DNA from: Octopus sinensis
Taxonomy: Eukaryota
Length of the DNA: 64,000 nt
Reading direction: 5' to 3'
Assembly: GCF_006345805.1 (NCBI RefSeq)
Contig: NC_042997.1
Span: forward strand, 147,870,001-147,934,000
Positions within the stretch are counted from its first letter, which is position 1. Each line of letters begins with the position of its first letter. The translations under genes and the position numbers were made by a program. The notes under the pieces are model-generated. The model searched no databases. It had not been told where the DNA came from and worked only from the letters and a program-made list of their open reading frames with translations. Below, piece after piece: positions 25,170 to 64,000 of this stretch.

Positions 25170-26850
25170 TGAGTATTCTGTAGAGCTGCAGATAAGGATA
25201 GCATAGGCTCTCCACAGTTCGTGATTTGTACTGTCGACTAAGATACGTTTCATAGACAGGGACCCTGTTACTGGAAGCTGAATATGTCGTTCCCGGCGAG
25301 TAAAAATTTCAGAGACCGGATTAGTGAACTAGATAAGACGGCATTAATGGGGGCAATAATTAACAATAAATGGCGGAACGCCTTAAAAAGGGCGATTAGA
25401 ATAGAATGGATAAGGTTTAGCAAATGACTAGCAGTAGAAAGGAAGAGAGTAGAGGCAGAATTAGTCAAGAAATTAGACGAGGCTTTTAGAAAAGGCATCG
25501 CGACCGATGTGCTCGCAGCAAGATTGATACTCGGCCAGTTCTTTAACGCGGAACACGAAAGTTGCGTAGTCAGAGCTAAGGTACGAGCACTTAGACATGA
25601 CGAGACAAAGCCATCCAATGGGCCCGAATGGTAGAGGAACGGCGTGGCAGTAAATACACGGTCCGATCCTTGCTGGACGACGACGGGCAAATGATAATTG
25701 ATCCGAGACAGATGTGTGTAACCTTTGAGCGGTGTTTCGCTCAACTGTTTGGGAGCAGCCGTAGGATGGATTTTGCGCCCTACCTCGACGGGCGGCCGCG
25801 GCTCTCAGTGATAGAGGTGAAGCGCTGCGAAAGGCCAACAAAAGGTTTTGAAATATGGGAAGCAATGTCACAAGGGGTAAATCACCTCATTTGGATGGTC
25901 TGCCCTACGAGCTTTACGCTTCCGTGCCAGACTTGTTCGGCGACCACTTAGCATAAGTCAACTGCAACTGGCTATAAAATGGAAGAATTCCCCAGTTTTG
26001 TGAACCGAGGAGCAGTGGTGTTTCTGAGAAAAGACCCGAAGAAGGGGGATTATATTGACAACTTTAGGCCCATAACTCTGCTGATTGTAGAATTCAAAAT
26101 TTTGGCCAAGGTGTTGACTACGAGTTTGGCGCTTGTCGTCAGGAATCTGGGAGGGGAAGCACAGACACGTGCCATCCCGAAAAGAATCATCTACGACAAC
26201 CTCCACCTCTGGAGCCTTGATCAATTTAGATCAATTTGGATCAGTCGACCACCTATATTGAAATGCTGGTCCTCAAGAAAGCTGGTTTCGGGCCTGTATT
26301 CAGCGGCTGGATCACTGGAATGCACAGCGAGATCTGTTCAGTGGTCAGAGTGAACGGTCACTTCTCGGAGCCGTTCAACATCATGCGTTCAGTCCGGCAA
26401 GTTTACCTCTCTCGTCTATCTTGTATATACTGACTGTCAATCCACTACTACACAAACTAGAGACGTTGAGAGGCATACCGCGTGACCTAAGATGTAGGAG
26501 ATACGTGTCAGCTTATGCGAACAACGCGCCACCCAAGTGGGGCAGGATAAGAAACACATAGAAATTATCGGCACCGCTCTCCGGGACTACAAGGCGGTTT
26601 CAGGAGCGACTATTAACCAGGAAAAACCACTGAGCTTGCGACTCAGCACCTGGAGAAGTAAGTCCATGCCATCCAACTGTGTCGTTGGGCGCTGGGCGGA
26701 CGGGTTTAATTGCTTCGGGTCTGGATCAGTTCAGACCTCCAAATGGATAAAACCTGGGACGAGGTAACGAGCAGGGTGACTGCTCTCACCCAGAAATGGG
26801 CCAGGAGAAAGCTATCCATGAAAAGTCGGGCAGCCTCTCCATTTCAGGCT
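25170..26850 (+). mobile_element. Tx1/L1-clade LINE ORF2 pseudogene (RT region)
   Basis: KSPHLDGLPYELY, GAVVFLRKDPKKGDYIDNFRPITLLIVEFKILAKVL, VVRVNGHFSEPFNIMRSVRQ, SAYAN(N) (cf. YADD), YKAVSGATINQEK, with frameshifts. GC content is higher than the flanks. Confidence 0.9.
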
Positions 26851-28445: not shown

Positions 28446-28717
28446 CATACACACATACACATAGATGTATATATATTTATATTCATACACAGATACATAC
28501 CTACATATATATATATATAATACTAAATAATTAGGGTTCAGCAACGATTTGCCTCACCACATGCTGAAGTTTAGAAATAGCAGTCAAAATCTTGGCTATT
28601 CTTTCTACTTTAAAGGGAGATCCCAGAGAAACCAAAACACTCAAAAGCAAACCATGCAGGTAGAAGGGAAATTACTGATTACTTCGTAAGTAACTAATTT
28701 CACCCTTTGTTATTATG

Positions 28718-28805
<88 letters not shown>

Positions 28806-34550: not shown

Positions 34551-35773
34551 TTAGGTTGTTGTGCATGAAATATCGCATTTTAAATTACTTGTTACTTCAG
34601 TAATTTAAAAACTCAATTATGTACACCTTGCATTTATTTTTGACTCTGTTTCTTAACCAACAATATTGGTATACAAAATTCGTATCCACAAACCATATGA
34701 AAATGAAAACAACCAAACTATTTTAAGAGATTTTCTCGTATGAGTACAATCTGGGCCACTCTGCTTCAGAAGCTCTTCGGAATATCAAGCGGGCCTTTGG
34801 TAATGATTTTGTTGACAACAGAACTGTTCAGAGATGGTTACAAAGCTCTCGTCCTGGTGATGATAACTTCAAAATAAAGCAAGGGATAGGCCAAAATCAG
34901 TTATTCGGCATGATGGATTAAATGCTTTGGTTGAACAAAATCCGAGAACAAAGGTTTGAAACTCCAAACATCTTGCACAACTGTTTTTGGATACCTGTAA
35001 AAAGTCGGAAAGTCAAGAAAACGGATAGATTTGTTCCATATCAACTGAACGAGATTAAAAAAAGGAATAAAACACGTCTCGATGTGTGCTCTTTATTGCT
35101 TTCTCGACTGGAAAAAGACCATGTTTGCACCAACTCATTACTTAATGAGAAATGGATACACTTTCACAACAGCAGAACAGGACAGTGATTAGATGCAGGA
35201 AATTCACATAAACACTACTCATTTCACTCTGAAAAGTTAGTGTTCACTCTATGGTGGTCCGCGAAGGGAGTTATTCATTATTCATTTTTGCAACAAGGAA
35301 AAATTGTATCAGCAAATTGTAACAGGAAATTGATTGTATGCCTGAGAATTTGAAAAAGAAGCAACCCAGACTAGTGAATAGAGATGGCCCAAGTTTGCTC
35401 CACGACAATGCACGTTCTCACACTCCTCAAGCTACGGTTCAAAAGTTGCAAAGCCTGATTTATGAAATTTTGCAACATCCACTCTATTCCCCTGATATCT
35501 CTCCTACTAATTATCACTTATTTAAGCATTTTGAGCTTTTCATAAGCAATGAAGCATTCTTCAGTAGAGAAGAGATAATTGAAGCATTCGGACAGTTTAT
35601 TAGAGCAAAACATGAAGTTTTGTTAAAAATAGAATATATGACATACAGAAACGTTGGGTAAACGTCATAAATGAACTCGGATCATACTTTGATTAAATAA
35701 ATCAGTTCTCTAACACTTATGAAACATTTTATTGTTACCTATCAAATACGACATTTCAAGTAAAATGACCTAA
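34551..35773 (+). mobile_element. mariner DNA transposon (1223 bp) with decayed transposase
   Basis: Imperfect TIRs TTAGGTTGTTGTGCATGAAATATCGCATTT and TTAGGTCATTTTACTTGAAATGTCGTATTT (reverse complement), with TA TSD. Confidence 0.92.
34697..35696 (+). pseudogene. mariner transposase pseudogene
   Basis: NRTVQRW (HTH), FVPYQL (cf. WVPHEL), LNEKWIH (cf. TGDEKW), LLHDNARSH, HPLYSPDISPTNYHLF, terminal GSYFD*. Several stops and frameshifts. Confidence 0.9.
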
Positions 35774-57804: not shown

Positions 57805-59725
57805 TCAACCCCCAACACACTATATCGGACATAACGTTTAGTGCCCCTGATGTCTTAGCGGCGATAAACGAAATAAAACACAATTCAGCAGTAGGCCCCG
57901 ATAGGTTCCCTGCTTGTGTCCTGAAGGTGTGTCGACAACCAACTTGCATCTCCCCTTGCTAATCTGTGGAGAAACTAACTGGATTGCTGGCTATATTCCA
58001 AAAAACCTTCTGTCCCAGTCTGTTGTCCCAGTTTTCAAAAAGGGAAACAAGTCCCCTTGCAGTGAATTACCGTCCGATCACACTCACCTCTCATATCATC
58101 AAGGTATTTGAGAGGGTGGTGAGATCTCGAATAACCATTTCTGGAAAGCAACAGACGGCTGATCTCCAACCAACATGGGTTCCGTAATGGAAGGGACTGC
58201 CTAACTCGCTCCTGCATCACTTTGAGGACATTTTGAGAGCTTTGGGAGAGGGCTCCAACACCGATGTCATCTACCTTGATTTCAGTAAGGCCTTCGACAG
58301 GTCGATCACAAGATCCTATTGAAAAAAACTATCCAACATTGGTGTCTCTGGAAAGTACTGAAATGGATCAAGGTTCCTGACAGACAGATCTCAACATGTT
58401 GTAGTTGAAGGGGTAAAATCAAGCCCAGCCAAAGTCAGTAGTGGCGTTCCGCAAGGCACTGTGCTGGGCCCACTTCTTTTCATCATTACATTAATGACAT
58501 TAATGACATCATCAAGAACCAGCAACATAAAATCTTTGCAGATGACTCCAAGCTACAGAAGTCATAAATGAGGCGAGTGACCGGACATGCCTTCAGTCAG
58601 ATCTACTGGCTGTTATCCAATGGGCAGAAAAAAACAATATGCTGCTGAACGAGGATAAATTTGAGCTAATCCACTTTGGAAAAAAGGGATGCCCTGAAAC
58701 TCCCATACTCCTTCCTCAGGTGAAACTCTCGCGGCGTCCAACAACATCAGAGACTTGGGAGTAATTGTGGACAACAACATAAGCTGGGCCACTCATATAA
58801 ACACCAAAGTTGACATGGCCCGCAGAATGTGTCCTGGATTCTCAGAAACTTTCCAGTCGAGAGATATCCCACACCATTATCCTTCTCTCTCCACTTTGCC
58901 CGACCCACCTTGAATACTGTTGTCCACTGTGGTCTCCCCACACAATACAAGGTATCATAAAAGTTGAAGCACCTCAAAGGCAATCACAAAAAAGATAGAT
59001 GGCATGACAGGCCTCGACTATTGGGGTCGACTAGAAAGCTAAAACTCTATTCCCTCCAACGTCGTCAGAATGTGTTCCTCGATTCTCAGAACTTTCCAGT
59101 CGAGAGATATCCACACCATTATCCTTCTCTTCTCCACTTTTGCCCGACCCCACCTTGAATACTGTTGTCCACTGTGGTCTCCCCACACAATACAAGGTAT
59201 CATAAAAGTTGAAGCACCTCAAAGGCAATCACAAAAAGATAGATGGCATGACAGGCCTCGACTATTGGGGTCGACTAGAAAAGCTAAAACTCTATTCCTC
59301 CAACGTCGTCGGAGCGCTACATCATCTGCATGATGTGGAAAATATTCCATCAGCATTGCCCAAATGATGTTGGCATCACCTTTAAGTACATCCCAGGCTT
59401 GGGCCCGTGCCATCGCCCAAAACAAAAATCGCACTCTCATCTCATAACAACAATACGGCACATTATTTCACCTCAATTGGCCCCGCTCTCTTTAACATTG
59501 CACCAAAACACATTAAAACAGAAACTGACCCTATAGGTTCAAGAAAGTTTGGACAGATTCCTCAAGAAATCCCGGATAAACCCCCTTAGCCGGATAGGTC
59601 TTGTAAACAATAACTCTCTACTTGAGTGGGCCATAGTGCCCAAATTCTGACTTGAAAGACTTCACCAGGTGGGTGCTATTAAGTTAGACATGGCCTGGGC
59701 CAATAATGGCCGAAACCTATCAAAG
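57805..59725 (+). mobile_element. CR1/L2-group LINE, 5'-truncated, with intact 3' end
   Basis: SAVGPDRFPA, NYRPITLTSHIIKVFER, QHGFRNGRDC, DVIYLDFSKAFD, SGVPQGTVLGPLLF, IFADDSKL, RPHLEYCCPLWSP, KLKLYSLQRR. Many 1-bp indels and an internal 243-bp tandem duplication. Confidence 0.95.
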
Positions 59726-59741
59726 TAAGTATACATATATA

Positions 59742-59836
<95 letters not shown>

Positions 59837-59854
59837 GTGTGTATAATATATATC

Positions 59855-61013
59855 GACTGGACAGATGCTGGAGTACCTTCTTTCAGTGTTTTGATGTCTC
59901 ATTTTGGTACCGTTTTTGGACAACTGAGTTGGATGAAGCTGCTTTTCTTTGTACCTCCTGCTGGGATGCAGTCTTATCTGGGATTTCTGACAGAAATTTG
60001 TCATGGTGCTTTTGAATGTTCCCAGATCTACACCTTGCAGATCTGTTAGGTCCCGTGGAAGGATGTTAAACTGGTGTGATACCCAGAACCCTGAGCTAAT
60101 GCAATACTGGATCCTTATCTGAAAGGAAGAAGACGGTATCTTTCATATTACGCAGTGCTGTCCAGTTCGATGGCTTGTATAGGTTTCAGTTCTAAAGTTG
60201 TGAGCCAGACCTTCCAGGGTCTTCCATATGTATGTCACAGCATAATTTTCTCGTCTTCTCTCCACGGAGTAGAGCTTCATTTCTTGTAACCTCACCTATT
60301 TGTTCATTTGTTTCACCAAGTCAATCTTCTTTGTGTAATGCCGCTGGATTGCCTCAAGTTTCGTATCAAAATTTGACATTCTGCTGCGGGAGCAGTAATC
60401 CAGTCGACTGAGGACAAATGTGCTCCTTAAGAGTAGCAAGGTATCCTTACTTCTGGCTCTGAATGACATAAGGATCCATCAAGCTACATAGTCTTGCCAT
60501 CCTGGCAATACACACATGAATAGTTGCATCACTACTTATGTAGATTCCCAGGTCACGCATCGTGTTTAACTCTGGGATTGCACTGCCCCCTGATCCTATG
60601 TATTCAGATTGTAGTCTGTGGGTCGATAGCGGAGTGCTTTGAAACTGATCAGCATTGAACTGCATGTTATTTTCATCGGTTCATTCGTATATTGCATGCA
60701 AGTCGTTTTGCAGTTTTACTATACCATCAAGCTTTTTGACTGCCTGAGATATGTATCATTAGCATAACTGGTGAGTGATTGCCTGTATAACTGAGGGCAA
60801 TGTCTGAGAGAGCCACAACAAACAGTAGTGGTCCCAGTACAGTTCCCTGAGGAACTCCGCTGCAACTGCCGGACTTCTGTCTATGAAAAAGTCGTGCGGC
60901 TACTCTCAGTTTTCCAGTGATAGCCAGATTATGTAGTTTGTGACATCATCAAATGATCAACTTTATCAAGGGCTTTGGCAAGTCGAGATATATGACATGC
61001 ACATTTGAGTGGT
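59855..61013 (-). mobile_element. CR1/L2-group LINE, older copy
   Basis: HVIYLDL, SGVPQGTVLGPLLF, MQFNADQFQ, VLSRLDYCS, EMKLYSVERRRENYAVTYIWKTLEG. Confidence 0.88.
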
Positions 61014-61248: not shown

Positions 61249-61294
<46 letters not shown>

Positions 61295-61483
61295 ACAAAT
61301 GAGGGTAAAATTAATTAATTAATCAATTTCACCAAGTGTTCAGTATGTAAAGGACCATTTAAGGCGAATTCAAAATATTACATTATATAATTAGGGCTTA
61401 GTAAAATAAATTACTTTGCCACATACTGAACTTAGTAGAAATAGCAGCAAAAAAATTTTCTTAGCATTTCTACTACTAGAAAT

Positions 61484-61546
61484 TTTGAGCTGACGAAAGA
61501 AATGCTGTACTTATTTGGCTAATCTTGAAACGTTGACGTACTCAAA
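61484..61546 (+). ncRNA. Type I hammerhead ribozyme, intact core
   Basis: Stem I TTTGAG/CTCAAA, core CTGACGA, stem II AAGA/TCTT, GAAA, stem III ACG-TTGA-CGT. Predicted cleavage after GUA at 61540. Confidence 0.8.
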
Positions 61547-62042
61547 CGATCTATGTACTTGTGATACGTTTCTGTATTTACCTCCAAACCTTCGTGAGCT
61601 GTCTGGAGTAAACATTATCTGAGAGAAATTTTCTTTAAGTAGTAGAAATGCTAAGAAAATTTTTTTGGCTGCTATTTCTACTAAGTTCAGTATGTGGCAA
61701 AGTATTTATTTTACTAAGCCCTAATATATATGTAATATTTTGAATTCGCCTTAAATGGTCCTTTTACATACTGAACACTTGGTGAAATTGATTAATTAAT
61801 TAATTTTACCCTCACTTGTTGATATTATAATTCATTTCTCTCGGTCATACTGCCTCGGTTCTCGCGGTTAAAATATAATGTTTGCTAGATAGACGACGTG
61901 GGTGGAATGGGGAGTGCAGAAATTTACGCCTGCGCATTTTGAATTTGTTGACACTGTTAGTTGGAGTGGTTCATCTGAAGCGACAAGTTCGCTGATAGGT
62001 AATGTTCCTTCTTTTTAGTGTTTCCAAATCCAAATTAAGAAA

Positions 62043-62103
62043 TTTGAGCTGACGAAAGAAATGCTGATTTATTTGGCTAATCTTGAAACGTTGACGTACT
62101 AAA
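62043..62103 (+). ncRNA. Type I hammerhead ribozyme, second copy
   Basis: Same core, predicted cleavage after 62098. The stem I 3' strand reads CTAAA (one C missing, either real or an assembly indel). Confidence 0.7.
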
Positions 62104-62295
62104 CGATCTATGTACTTGTGATATGTTTCTGTATTTACCTCCAAACCTTCGTGAGCTGTCTGGAGTAAACATTATCTGAGAGAAATTTTCTTTAAGTAGT
62201 AGAATGCTAAGAAAATTTTTTTGGCTGCTATTTCTACTAAGTTCAGTATGTGGCAAAGTAATTTATTTTACTAAGCCCTAATTATATAATGTAAT

Positions 62296-62351
<56 letters not shown>

Positions 62352-62550: not shown

Positions 62551-62789
62551 ATATAGATATACCTGCTGCTTGGACGTTTTTTTTAATTTTGTCTCTCCCC
62601 CCACAGATACATATATAGTATTTTTGAACTATTCTGCGCATTTTCTGTGTAGGTTATTTAATACGATTATTTTTTACACAATGCTATAGAAGGAAATCCC
62701 TGCTCAGGATTTCACGAGGGGTAATCGAACCTGGAAGCACATGTAAACAATGCGACATGCCCTTAGTTGTATAGGCAGCCATTTCCACC

Positions 62790-62885
62790 AGTTATGTTAA
62801 AACAAACGTTTCTCAGGCTGTGAAAGACCCTGGTAACATAGTAAAACAGCAAAATGACTTGCATGCAATATACAAATGAACCACA
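62790..62885 (+). mobile_element. Short CR1/L2-group RT fragment
   Basis: SQAVKDPGNIVKQQNDLHAIYK, similar to the reverse complement of 60680-60770. Confidence 0.55.
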
Positions 62886-62929
62886 CACATTGACAAGAGC
62901 TTATATAAACTTCTCCCTTTCGAAACCCA

Positions 62930-63252
62930 TCTTTCTCATATAACTGTAGAACTAGAAATATAGTCTACAGCATAAGTTGCATAGAGTGTGCTTGTAAAGA
63001 CAAGAACATGATATATATAGGTGAGACATCTAGAAGCATTGCAGAGAGACGAGATGACCATTTGAAACAATAAGACGACAAAAAAAAAACAGTCCTCCAT
63101 ACTCTTCCAACATGCCGATGACCAACATGGAGGCACCCTGGATAAACTTGACATCCGCATTTTATCCAAGCACCCGAAAGATCCAACACTCAGACAAATT
63201 CAGGAGTACCTCCTCATAAATGAAACATCCCTAAATAGGAAATATACGTAGA
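62930..63252 (+). pseudogene. Penelope-like element GIY-YIG endonuclease relic (Naiad-like)
   Basis: NCRTRNIVYSISCIECACKDKNMIYIGETSRSIAERRDDHLKQ*, frameshift, then SILFQHADDQHGG...DPTLRQIQEYLLINETSLNRKYT*. Confidence 0.85.
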
Positions 63253-63384: not shown

Positions 63385-64000
63385 TGAAATTTACAGAAAT
63401 CAAAAGACGAAGATGGGTGTGTAAACAACAAACAGATGTATTAGTTTAACGCTCGGGAAGTGACAAAGACTTTTACGTTTCGAGCCTGCGCTCTTCGACA
63501 GAAAGGAACACAGAAATAAACAGGGAGAGAAAATACAAAAAAGGCTTAGTGGCTAGCGATCTATCATGGCGAATGCCGGACAGAGAGGTCACACATGAGA
63601 GCTGAGAAGAAGGGGAGATAATAAAGTAGTGGTGATGCCAAAACGAAGGTGCGCGTGAGTGTGCATGTGAGAGTGTGTATGTGTGTGTGGGAGGAGGCAG
63701 GTGACATTGACGCATGCATGTGTGCATGTGTTAGTGTGTGGAAAATGGTGTAGGTGCTGGGAAGTGGTCAGTGCTAATGTGTGCGGAGTGGTGTGATGTG
63801 GTGTGGTATGGTGGTATGTGGTATGTGGTGGTGTGTGGTGTGGTGCTGTTGGGGGTGTGGGGGAGACGAGAGTGGTGGAAGCAAGCGTGGGGTCTAAGGG
63901 ATGGGGGTGGGATGGGAAGTATAGGGATGGTGGGGTTGAAATGTGTAGGTTGGGGTAACGAGGGATGGGAAAATGAAGCGAGAGGGTGGAAGGCAGAAGG
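63382..64000 (-). mobile_element. Probable Penelope-like element terminal/UTR region (runs off the window)
   Basis: Abuts (TA)n, carries a minimal hammerhead motif, and has a C/A-rich low-complexity region on the minus strand. No ORF inside the window. Confidence 0.55.
63470..63505 (-). ncRNA. Minimal type I hammerhead-like motif with variant core
   Basis: CTTT-CTGTCGA-A-GAGC gcag GCTC-GAAA-CG-TA-AAAG. Confidence 0.6.

Follow-up and report, generated by a model that had tools for sequence, protein, structure and literature searches.

A candidate hammerhead retrozyme with Penelope-like insertion features in Octopus sinensis

Results

Architecture of the insert

The analyzed window, 64,000 nt of Octopus sinensis genomic DNA in which all positions below are counted, contains at 61291–62297 an insert that consists of an inverted arm and 1.47 head-to-tail units inside (TA)n (Table 1). 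A previous sequence-only reading of this DNA had reported direct repeats of ~260 bp (61478–61737 and 62038–62297) within the same bounds. These were borne out by alignment, with 96.6% identity over 264 columns and 7 gaps for 61478–61738 versus 62038–62297, but the reading had left undescribed that 61291–61477 is an inverted copy of 61638–61825 (BLASTN, 61284–61486 versus 61829–61626, 94.7%). Because of this match, we describe the insert as an inverted arm followed by 1.47 units, in which a (TA)n tract is followed by the inverted arm, then by 820 nt in forward orientation and finally by the second (TA)n tract. The (TA)n on either side and the ATAT at both ends, also part of the earlier account, were recovered by TRF and by end comparison, respectively; a target-site duplication is not definable within (TA)n.

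The end of the forward part (short end) corresponds to 61737, while that of the inverted arm (long end) lies 88 nt farther, at the counterpart of 61825; both are in ATAT. The intervening 88-nt extension is present in the inverted arm and in copy A and missing after copy B. T61738A was considered as additional evidence for the short end and dropped, as contigs from other organisms carry it well within aligned sequence. Arm and forward part are joined head-to-head at an imperfect microhomology of 9–11 nt. As previously noted, the unit lacks an ORF: the insert contains none of at least 100 aa, and its longest stop-free stretch comprises 66 codons on the minus strand.

Internally, repeats A and B differ at nine places, seven of which are gaps of one base, located mostly in short runs; six differences, including five single-base gaps, separate copy A from the inverted arm. 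Some of these gaps are likely assembly errors, because at several of them both sister copies, and contigs as well, disagree with the assembled letters. The 558-nt spacing of the predicted GUA cut sites therefore stands as assembled, but the true unit size is probably 560–563 nt, given five single-base insertions in sister copies or contigs. Nine differences would be unexpected for two repeats copied from one circle, unless they represent later mutations or assembly errors. Both repeats share a G (61568/62125) where all contigs compared carry T, which fits a single template and would fit a species difference equally well.

Table 1 Features of the insert and its predicted RNA (window positions).
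Feature	Position	Strand	Evidence
Left (TA)n, target microsatellite	61252–61292	.	TRF, 20.5 copies, 100%
Inverted 5'-truncated arm with 88-nt tail; long end (ATAT) in left TA tract	61291–61477	−	BLASTN 94.7%; 6 differences from copy A
Head-to-head junction, imperfect microhomology of about 9–11 nt	61478–61486	.	Compared with reverse complement of 61620–61660 and sequence upstream of hammerhead 2
Direct repeat A (pLTR-like)	61478–61737	+	Repeat alignment
Hammerhead 1, type I, predicted cut after 61540	61484–61546	+	Descriptor scan, pair listing
Hammerhead 1, stem I	61484–61489/61541–61546, plus 3 bp 61478–61480/61550–61552	+	
Hammerhead 1, core; stem II with internal loop	61490–61496; 61497–61526	+	
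Hammerhead 1, GAAA; stem III	61527–61530; 61530–61539	+	
Predicted unit between the two cut sites; 558 nt in the assembly, GC 35%, no coding capacity, extensive pairing predicted	61541–62098	+	Fold; contigs of 4 runs
Predicted long rod, 61553–61629 with 61834–61937, hairpin domain at tip	61553–61937	+	Fold; 50 Watson–Crick, 10 G-U, 4 A-C, 10 other
Three-hairpin domain with both insertion ends (61737, about 61825)	61630–61825	+	Fold, end comparison
88-nt 'tail'	61738–61825	+	Alignment of arm and copies
Second predicted branch, upstream of hammerhead 2	61938–62034	+	Fold
Direct repeat B, short end (61737 equivalent) in ATAT	62038–62297	+	Repeat alignment, end comparison
Hammerhead 2, core 62049–62055, predicted cut after 62098	62043–62103	+	Descriptor scan, pair listing
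Right (TA)n tract	62283–62351	.	TRF

Hammerhead motifs

The insert carries two type I hammerhead motifs that are real and beyond chance: a strict descriptor matched twice in the 64-kb window, at CTGACGA cores starting at 61490 and 62049, and never in any of 100 windows that had been shuffled locally. The motif combines a 6-bp stem I, a 4-bp stem II (AAGA/TCTT) extended beyond an internal loop, and a stem III of 3 bp capped by a 4-nt loop; the lengths of stems I and II match reported canonical hammerhead geometry (PMC4209133). The hammerhead previously proposed for each repeat was found, but the quoted fold is exact for copy 1 only. Where copy 1 reads CTCAAA, copy 2 reads CTAAA, leaving stem I bulged by the loss of one C in the assembly, which may be real or an assembly error. 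Because of this damage, the descriptor matched core 2 through a different site farther downstream. The listed pairs uphold the predicted GUA sites, which end at 61540 and 62098 with a spacing of 558 nt, but not the claim of a short stem III, which with 3 pairs is not especially short. The suggested Rfam check returned no match to the hammerhead families at E ≤ 5 over 8 kb or at E ≤ 10 over 121 nt; the length of stem II is the probable reason. Metagenome scans with the hammerhead pattern and with a 25-nt hairpin string yielded 0 loci each.

The active fold was predicted to lie 1.7 kcal/mol above the ensemble for hammerhead 1 and 6.7 kcal/mol for hammerhead 2, and 2.1 kcal/mol above the circular ensemble when considered in a circle; in the predicted minimum fold, the core is sequestered. 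In a read-through RNA of the locus, 183 nt of the inverted arm are predicted to pair with copy A, which makes the locus itself a likely dead end. As assembled, it would be a poor monomer source, given the 6.7 kcal/mol of hammerhead 2 and the pairing of the arm with copy 1. Among the variants listed for four sequencing runs (see below), none places an alternative letter at any catalytic core position in any of the four. Listed hammerhead variants affect loop II, loop III and the first stem II pair, which is broken by T61526A in a minor subfamily; with five variable places only, the lack of core variants is weak evidence.

Predicted fold of the unit

The plus strand of the unit was predicted to fold with −154 kcal/mol versus −108.5 kcal/mol for the minus strand (z −5.0 in a separate calculation), and with −148 kcal/mol as a circle (z −6.3, 67% paired). 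The difference of 45.6 kcal/mol between strands was surpassed by at least one of 40 background stretches (maximum, 53.7). Since the fold gap alone lies within background, our strand assignment rests on the ratio of G-U to A-C oppositions, which was 23:6 in a strand-neutral alignment of five helical arms (P = 0.001). Such an excess of G-U is expected from selection on the ribozyme-strand RNA rather than from a decaying DNA palindrome. The predicted fold closes on itself at stem I, and its long rod spans the long end by pairing sequence on either side of it. The hairpin domain at 61630–61825 may serve as the binding and priming region of an RT.

Stem covariation among family variants, proposed earlier as a check, gave a mixed outcome. 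In two pairs of the rod, 61576/61915 and 61599/61892, both partners vary (P = 0.03, with phase inferred), but the overall fit is weak: of 23 variants at paired sites, 10 keep and 13 break the pairing (chance expectation, 7.3 ± 1.4; P = 0.07), with 11 further variants at unpaired sites. Because the contigs are too short for phasing, we consider the covariation only suggestive.

Related sequences in contigs of other organisms

Of 24 listed sequencing runs, 20 (three organisms, 9 studies) contained 34–48% of the sampled words, and no run contained half of them. We aligned contigs from four of the 20 matching runs, representing organisms A, B, C and A, to the unit. In the four runs of these three organisms, 3,082, 865, 787 and 128 contigs fell on the unit, with many variants, and covered 30, 30, 30 and 28 of 30 bins, respectively (organisms A, B, C and A). 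None of the matching runs was listed as RNA, and one of them, X9, is RNA only by guess; in X9, 62066–62100 was uncovered by contigs. The share of contigs that continue into unlike sequence was 0, 0, 0 and 0.02. As four runs cover the unit and almost no contigs continue into unlike sequence, it represents a repeat family and not a local accident.

Continuity across critical positions was assessed in several ways. By a 31-letter rule, none of the 32 pieces listed (there are 4,864 others) bridges the long end, with best overlaps of 57/17 and 10/82 letters; among the same 32, the best overlap at the unit junction was 105/6 letters, short of the rule, and 61919–61948 was likewise unbridged. On both sides of 61825/61826, contigs cross without loose letters. 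Contigs with an extra T at 62042, numbering 8, 5, 5 and 1 in the four runs, were in every case assigned to the side of copy B; as these would fit copy A gap-free, their placement implies that they contain sequence from upstream of 62038. Loose ends at 61842 in two runs consist of letters homologous to the window and indicate a diverged subfamily. Neither joints nor piles of contig starts or ends were detected, in a reference whose 62-nt overlap conceals a tandem back-joint and with contigs, which do not reveal RNA ends.

Summed contig depth peaked in the hairpin domain, being 9–73 times higher over 61751–61813 than over 61835–62023 and fell 13- to 74-fold directly past 61834, in each of the four runs. 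This drop hints at many short copies that end at the long end, with the qualification that contig depth cannot rank parts. Separately, all four runs show loose ends before 61656–61662, where diverged sequences lie upstream of the hairpin domain; these may belong to related families or to an autonomous partner sharing the domain.

Related and neighboring sequences in the window

A distant relative on the minus strand at 28520–28670 aligns with 61570–61737 at a score of 93.5, compared to 40.7 ± 5.9 for shuffles (0 of 2,000 reached it), and has the same short end as the main element, in (TA)n. A candidate inverted long-end arm on this 28.5-kb relative was rejected, its score of 41 being equalled by several unrelated stretches of the window. 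The region 28520–28720 presents itself as a second insert flanked by TA tracts, with a similar hairpin on the minus strand.

Several remnants of other mobile elements accompany the insert. A broken endonuclease region resembling the GIY-YIG domain of Penelope-like elements (PLEs), with CxxC and YIGET motifs, lies at 62700–63250 on the plus strand; its piece at 62909–63070 matches Pfam GIY-YIG at E = 0.001, below the cut-off, and a homologue search with this piece found none. Two pieces of this PLE-like sequence, with 78% identity, flank the element in opposite orientation, at 60678–60804 (minus strand) and 62754–62882 (plus strand). At 63470–63506 on the minus strand, near a TA tract, inspection by eye revealed a motif resembling the minimal PLE-type hammerhead, with CUGUCGA instead of CUGANGA, a 4-bp stem I, an unpaired A before stem II and a palindromic stem III. 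Structure prediction did not fold it as a hammerhead; judged by its sequence, it is probably the pLTR of another PLE family. Other features comprise a two-copy direct repeat at 58847–59281 (period ~244 nt, with 100% identity in part), a decayed mariner transposase piece at 35323–35661 on the plus strand, whose best named matches, among six hits of which two were named, are proteins of Octopus bimaculoides (66% identity) and O. sinensis (73%), and two LINE-like RT fragments, at 25601–26353 on the plus strand (RVT_1, E = 0.005 for 25952–26353) and, judged by eye, at 59720–60700 on the minus strand.

Discussion

Proposed mobilization mechanism

We interpret the non-coding hammerhead unit of ~560 nt as a likely non-autonomous retrozyme that is copied in trans by a PLE, probably from self-cut, circularized RNA, and give this reading as a whole about an even chance. 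Its components differ in strength. That the element is a non-autonomous unit mobilized by a PLE we consider very probable. Mobilization by a Penelope-like RT had been suggested from the letters alone and is now supported by the inverted arm, the tail, the microhomology junction and the TA target, which is stronger evidence than was offered originally. The lack of an ORF argues that the element is not an autonomous PLE. The specific alternative that the unit is the pLTR of an autonomous Penelope has become less likely, considering the missing ORF, the fold across the long end and the contig cover in four runs. Regarding the template, the cut site is traversed two times in the forward cDNA, which excludes a linear monomer and leaves either a circle or an uncut tandem RNA. 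The layout of ~1.5 units fits a circle, as had been proposed, but fits an uncut tandem transcript equally; for a PLE-mobilized unit, we lean modestly toward the circle.

In the proposed series of events, tandem copies of the family would be transcribed on the plus strand and cleaved behind GUA by their hammerheads, and the resulting monomer would be circularized by a host ligase, as in the retrozymes of coral, mussel and axolotl. The monomer is predicted to form a three-armed circle composed of the hammerhead, the long rod with its three-hairpin tip and the second branch. A PLE protein would bind the hairpin domain, nick both strands of (TA)n and start synthesis from two internal AUAU sites separated by 88 nt. 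The insert contains 820 nt that begin at the 61737 site and pass the cut site twice, as well as about 190 nt that begin at the 61825 site, joined head-to-head at a short microhomology; these would correspond to two cDNAs. A more detailed version, with the circle itself as the template of a Penelope RT that docks on the three-hairpin domain, starts at the two AUAU sites and copies more than one round, is put forward tentatively, and we would not expect it to hold in all its parts.

Alternative explanations

A PLE could also have mobilized such a non-autonomous unit from the uncut tandem transcript, with a hammerhead that is weak, protein-dependent or a pLTR feature carried over and with little or no circle, a scenario that we regard as doubtful but deserving serious attention. 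It draws on reports that an anole PLE operates without need of cleavage, with uncut RNA as its main substrate (PMC11167929), and that eight of nine Xenopus retrozyme dimers showed no cleavage in vitro (10.64898/2026.07.22.740005); the non-identity of repeats A and B and the sequestered core in the predicted minimum fold point in the same direction. The canonical geometry of the hammerhead, the absence of listed core variants in four runs, the predicted self-closure at stem I and an active fold predicted to be 1.7–2.1 kcal/mol away, in the isolated motif and in the circle, speak against this scenario, and circles are reported to be abundant for coral, mussel and axolotl retrozymes (PMC7229834).

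Whether the 558-nt spacing is a family unit at all would be at issue if the locus comprised three truncated 3' pieces of an autonomous PLE or a one-off internal deletion or capture between two pLTRs. Autonomous PLEs are described as typically present in partial tandems accompanied by a truncated copy in inverse orientation (PMC8557442), pLTRs can flank captured DNA (PMC3846280), and the inverted arm stops exactly at 61825, where the junction would be. The strict rule left the long end, the unit junction and 61919–61948 unbridged among the 32 pieces listed, and there are 183 loose contig ends besides those listed. We nonetheless find this explanation improbable: 61826–62037 lacks an ORF, is predicted to pair with 61553–61629 and is covered in all four runs; contigs cross 61825/61826 both ways and the diverged subfamily is homologous through 61842; and the extra-T contigs (62042) fall on the copy-B side in each run, with unlike continuation limited to 0–0.02. 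Least probable by far, in our estimate, is a duplication and inversion created around an older single copy by local DNA rearrangement or long-read assembly. Against it stand the position of both outer ends at ATAT within TA tracts, a layout that agrees closely with PLE insertions, contigs of other organisms that contain the unit junction (by short overlaps) and the distant relative with the same short end. In its favor, most differences among the three copies are gaps of one base in short runs, which are typical of long-read consensus error, and no run contains half of the sampled words.

Significance

With the PLE-copied retrozyme as the preferred interpretation, the locus appears to extend retrozymes to cephalopods. 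The retrozyme class, the unit size and the PLE link are already published, and the locus refines this known story. Our literature search, with Repbase, Dfam and several supplements outside its scope, found no reports of cephalopod retrozymes. The main text of the O. vulgaris repeat annotation contains 0 occurrences of ribozyme or hammerhead, and one of its supplements 0 of hammerhead or retrozyme (PMC13282606); the family may already sit in a repeat library under another label. According to the same study, PLEs constitute 6.83% of the O. vulgaris genome and include 31 recently active families, which by analogy makes a partner PLE in octopus plausible.

Published support for PLE-moved retrozyme circles, as given in the sources cited here, consists of co-occurrence, pLTR similarity and the existence of circles. 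To this, the locus adds an integration signature (inverted arm, tail, microhomology join and TA target) on a coding-free hammerhead unit. The hairpin domain is a candidate recognition element and offers a concrete substrate for studies of PLE priming. The locus also permits a genome-only comparison of circular and tandem templates. If the circle is indeed the template, the locus would be a direct trace of circRNA retrotransposition in genomic DNA, in which the cis element and the two starts are already mapped, and circles as a transposition intermediate would become testable by genome comparison alone.

Comparison with known systems

Among non-autonomous PLE derivatives, Chlamys elements such as MRC1 resemble the present insert in having pLTRs and head-to-tail insertions (PMC8557442). 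They stem from green algae, however, and the Naiad/Chlamys-type PLEs with N-terminal EN are described in that source as devoid of canonical hammerheads; moreover, they have 3' ends in common with known partners, whereas the homologue search with the neighboring GIY-YIG piece yielded no partner for the unit studied here.

The closest structural parallels to the insertion itself come from EN+ PLEs. A typical Penelope consists of two direct pLTRs and an adjacent shorter inverted pLTR, with a 15-bp overlap and a tail on one arm (PMC3846280); the same layout is given by Craig et al. 2021, where Naiad elements are reported to prefer (TA)n (PMC8557442). A purified PLE was reported to cut and extend both strands of AT-rich DNA and to start reverse transcription at two internal sites, which define the tail (PMC11167929). 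In the same work, Penelope RT preferred uncut RNA in vitro, and for the anole PLE no reads ending at the cut site are reported. Our element shares with EN+ PLEs the two direct repeats, the adjacent inverted truncated arm, the short overlap, the one-arm tail, a hammerhead at the 5' end of the repeat, an AT-rich or (TA)n target and two internal end points. It differs in several respects. Autonomous EN+ PLEs encode RT and GIY-YIG in an ORF, whereas no ORF lies between the repeats here; their optional tail usually measures 30–40 nt, compared to 88 nt; and their end points fall in the start of the ORF rather than in a non-coding hairpin domain. The minimal PLE hammerhead has an unpaired base 5' of a G-C-closed stem II of 7–8 bp, a stem I of 4–5 bp and no stable stem III, in contrast to the 6-bp stem I, the 4-bp stem II with internal loop and the 3-bp stem III found here.

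With metazoan non-LTR retrozymes, which have been argued to be non-autonomous PLE derivatives from a sampling outside the molluscs (10.64898/2026.07.22.740005), the element has in common a head-to-tail unit that lacks coding capacity and bears a single canonical type I hammerhead, a GC content under 50%, high predicted self-pairing, the lack of LTR features and PLEs as proposed mobilizers. The invertebrate retrozyme RNAs tested measured 170–400 nt and were thus shorter, but published metazoan units range from 51 to 972 bp, so that ~560 falls inside this range (10.64898/2026.07.22.740005) and, contrary to the earlier remark on its length, is not unusual. Retrozymes typically contain a complete hammerhead in two or more consecutive head-to-tail units; here, 1.47 units carry two motifs, the second of which lacks one stem I base as assembled, the junction recurs in other runs by short overlaps, and longer arrays were not observed. 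A dispersed insertion of 1.47 units with inverted arm and tail, as seen here, is a feature undescribed for the retrozymes in the accessible text of PMC7229834 and 10.64898/2026.07.22.740005. By its testable features, the element is a metazoan non-LTR retrozyme with predicted cleavage and putative circles.
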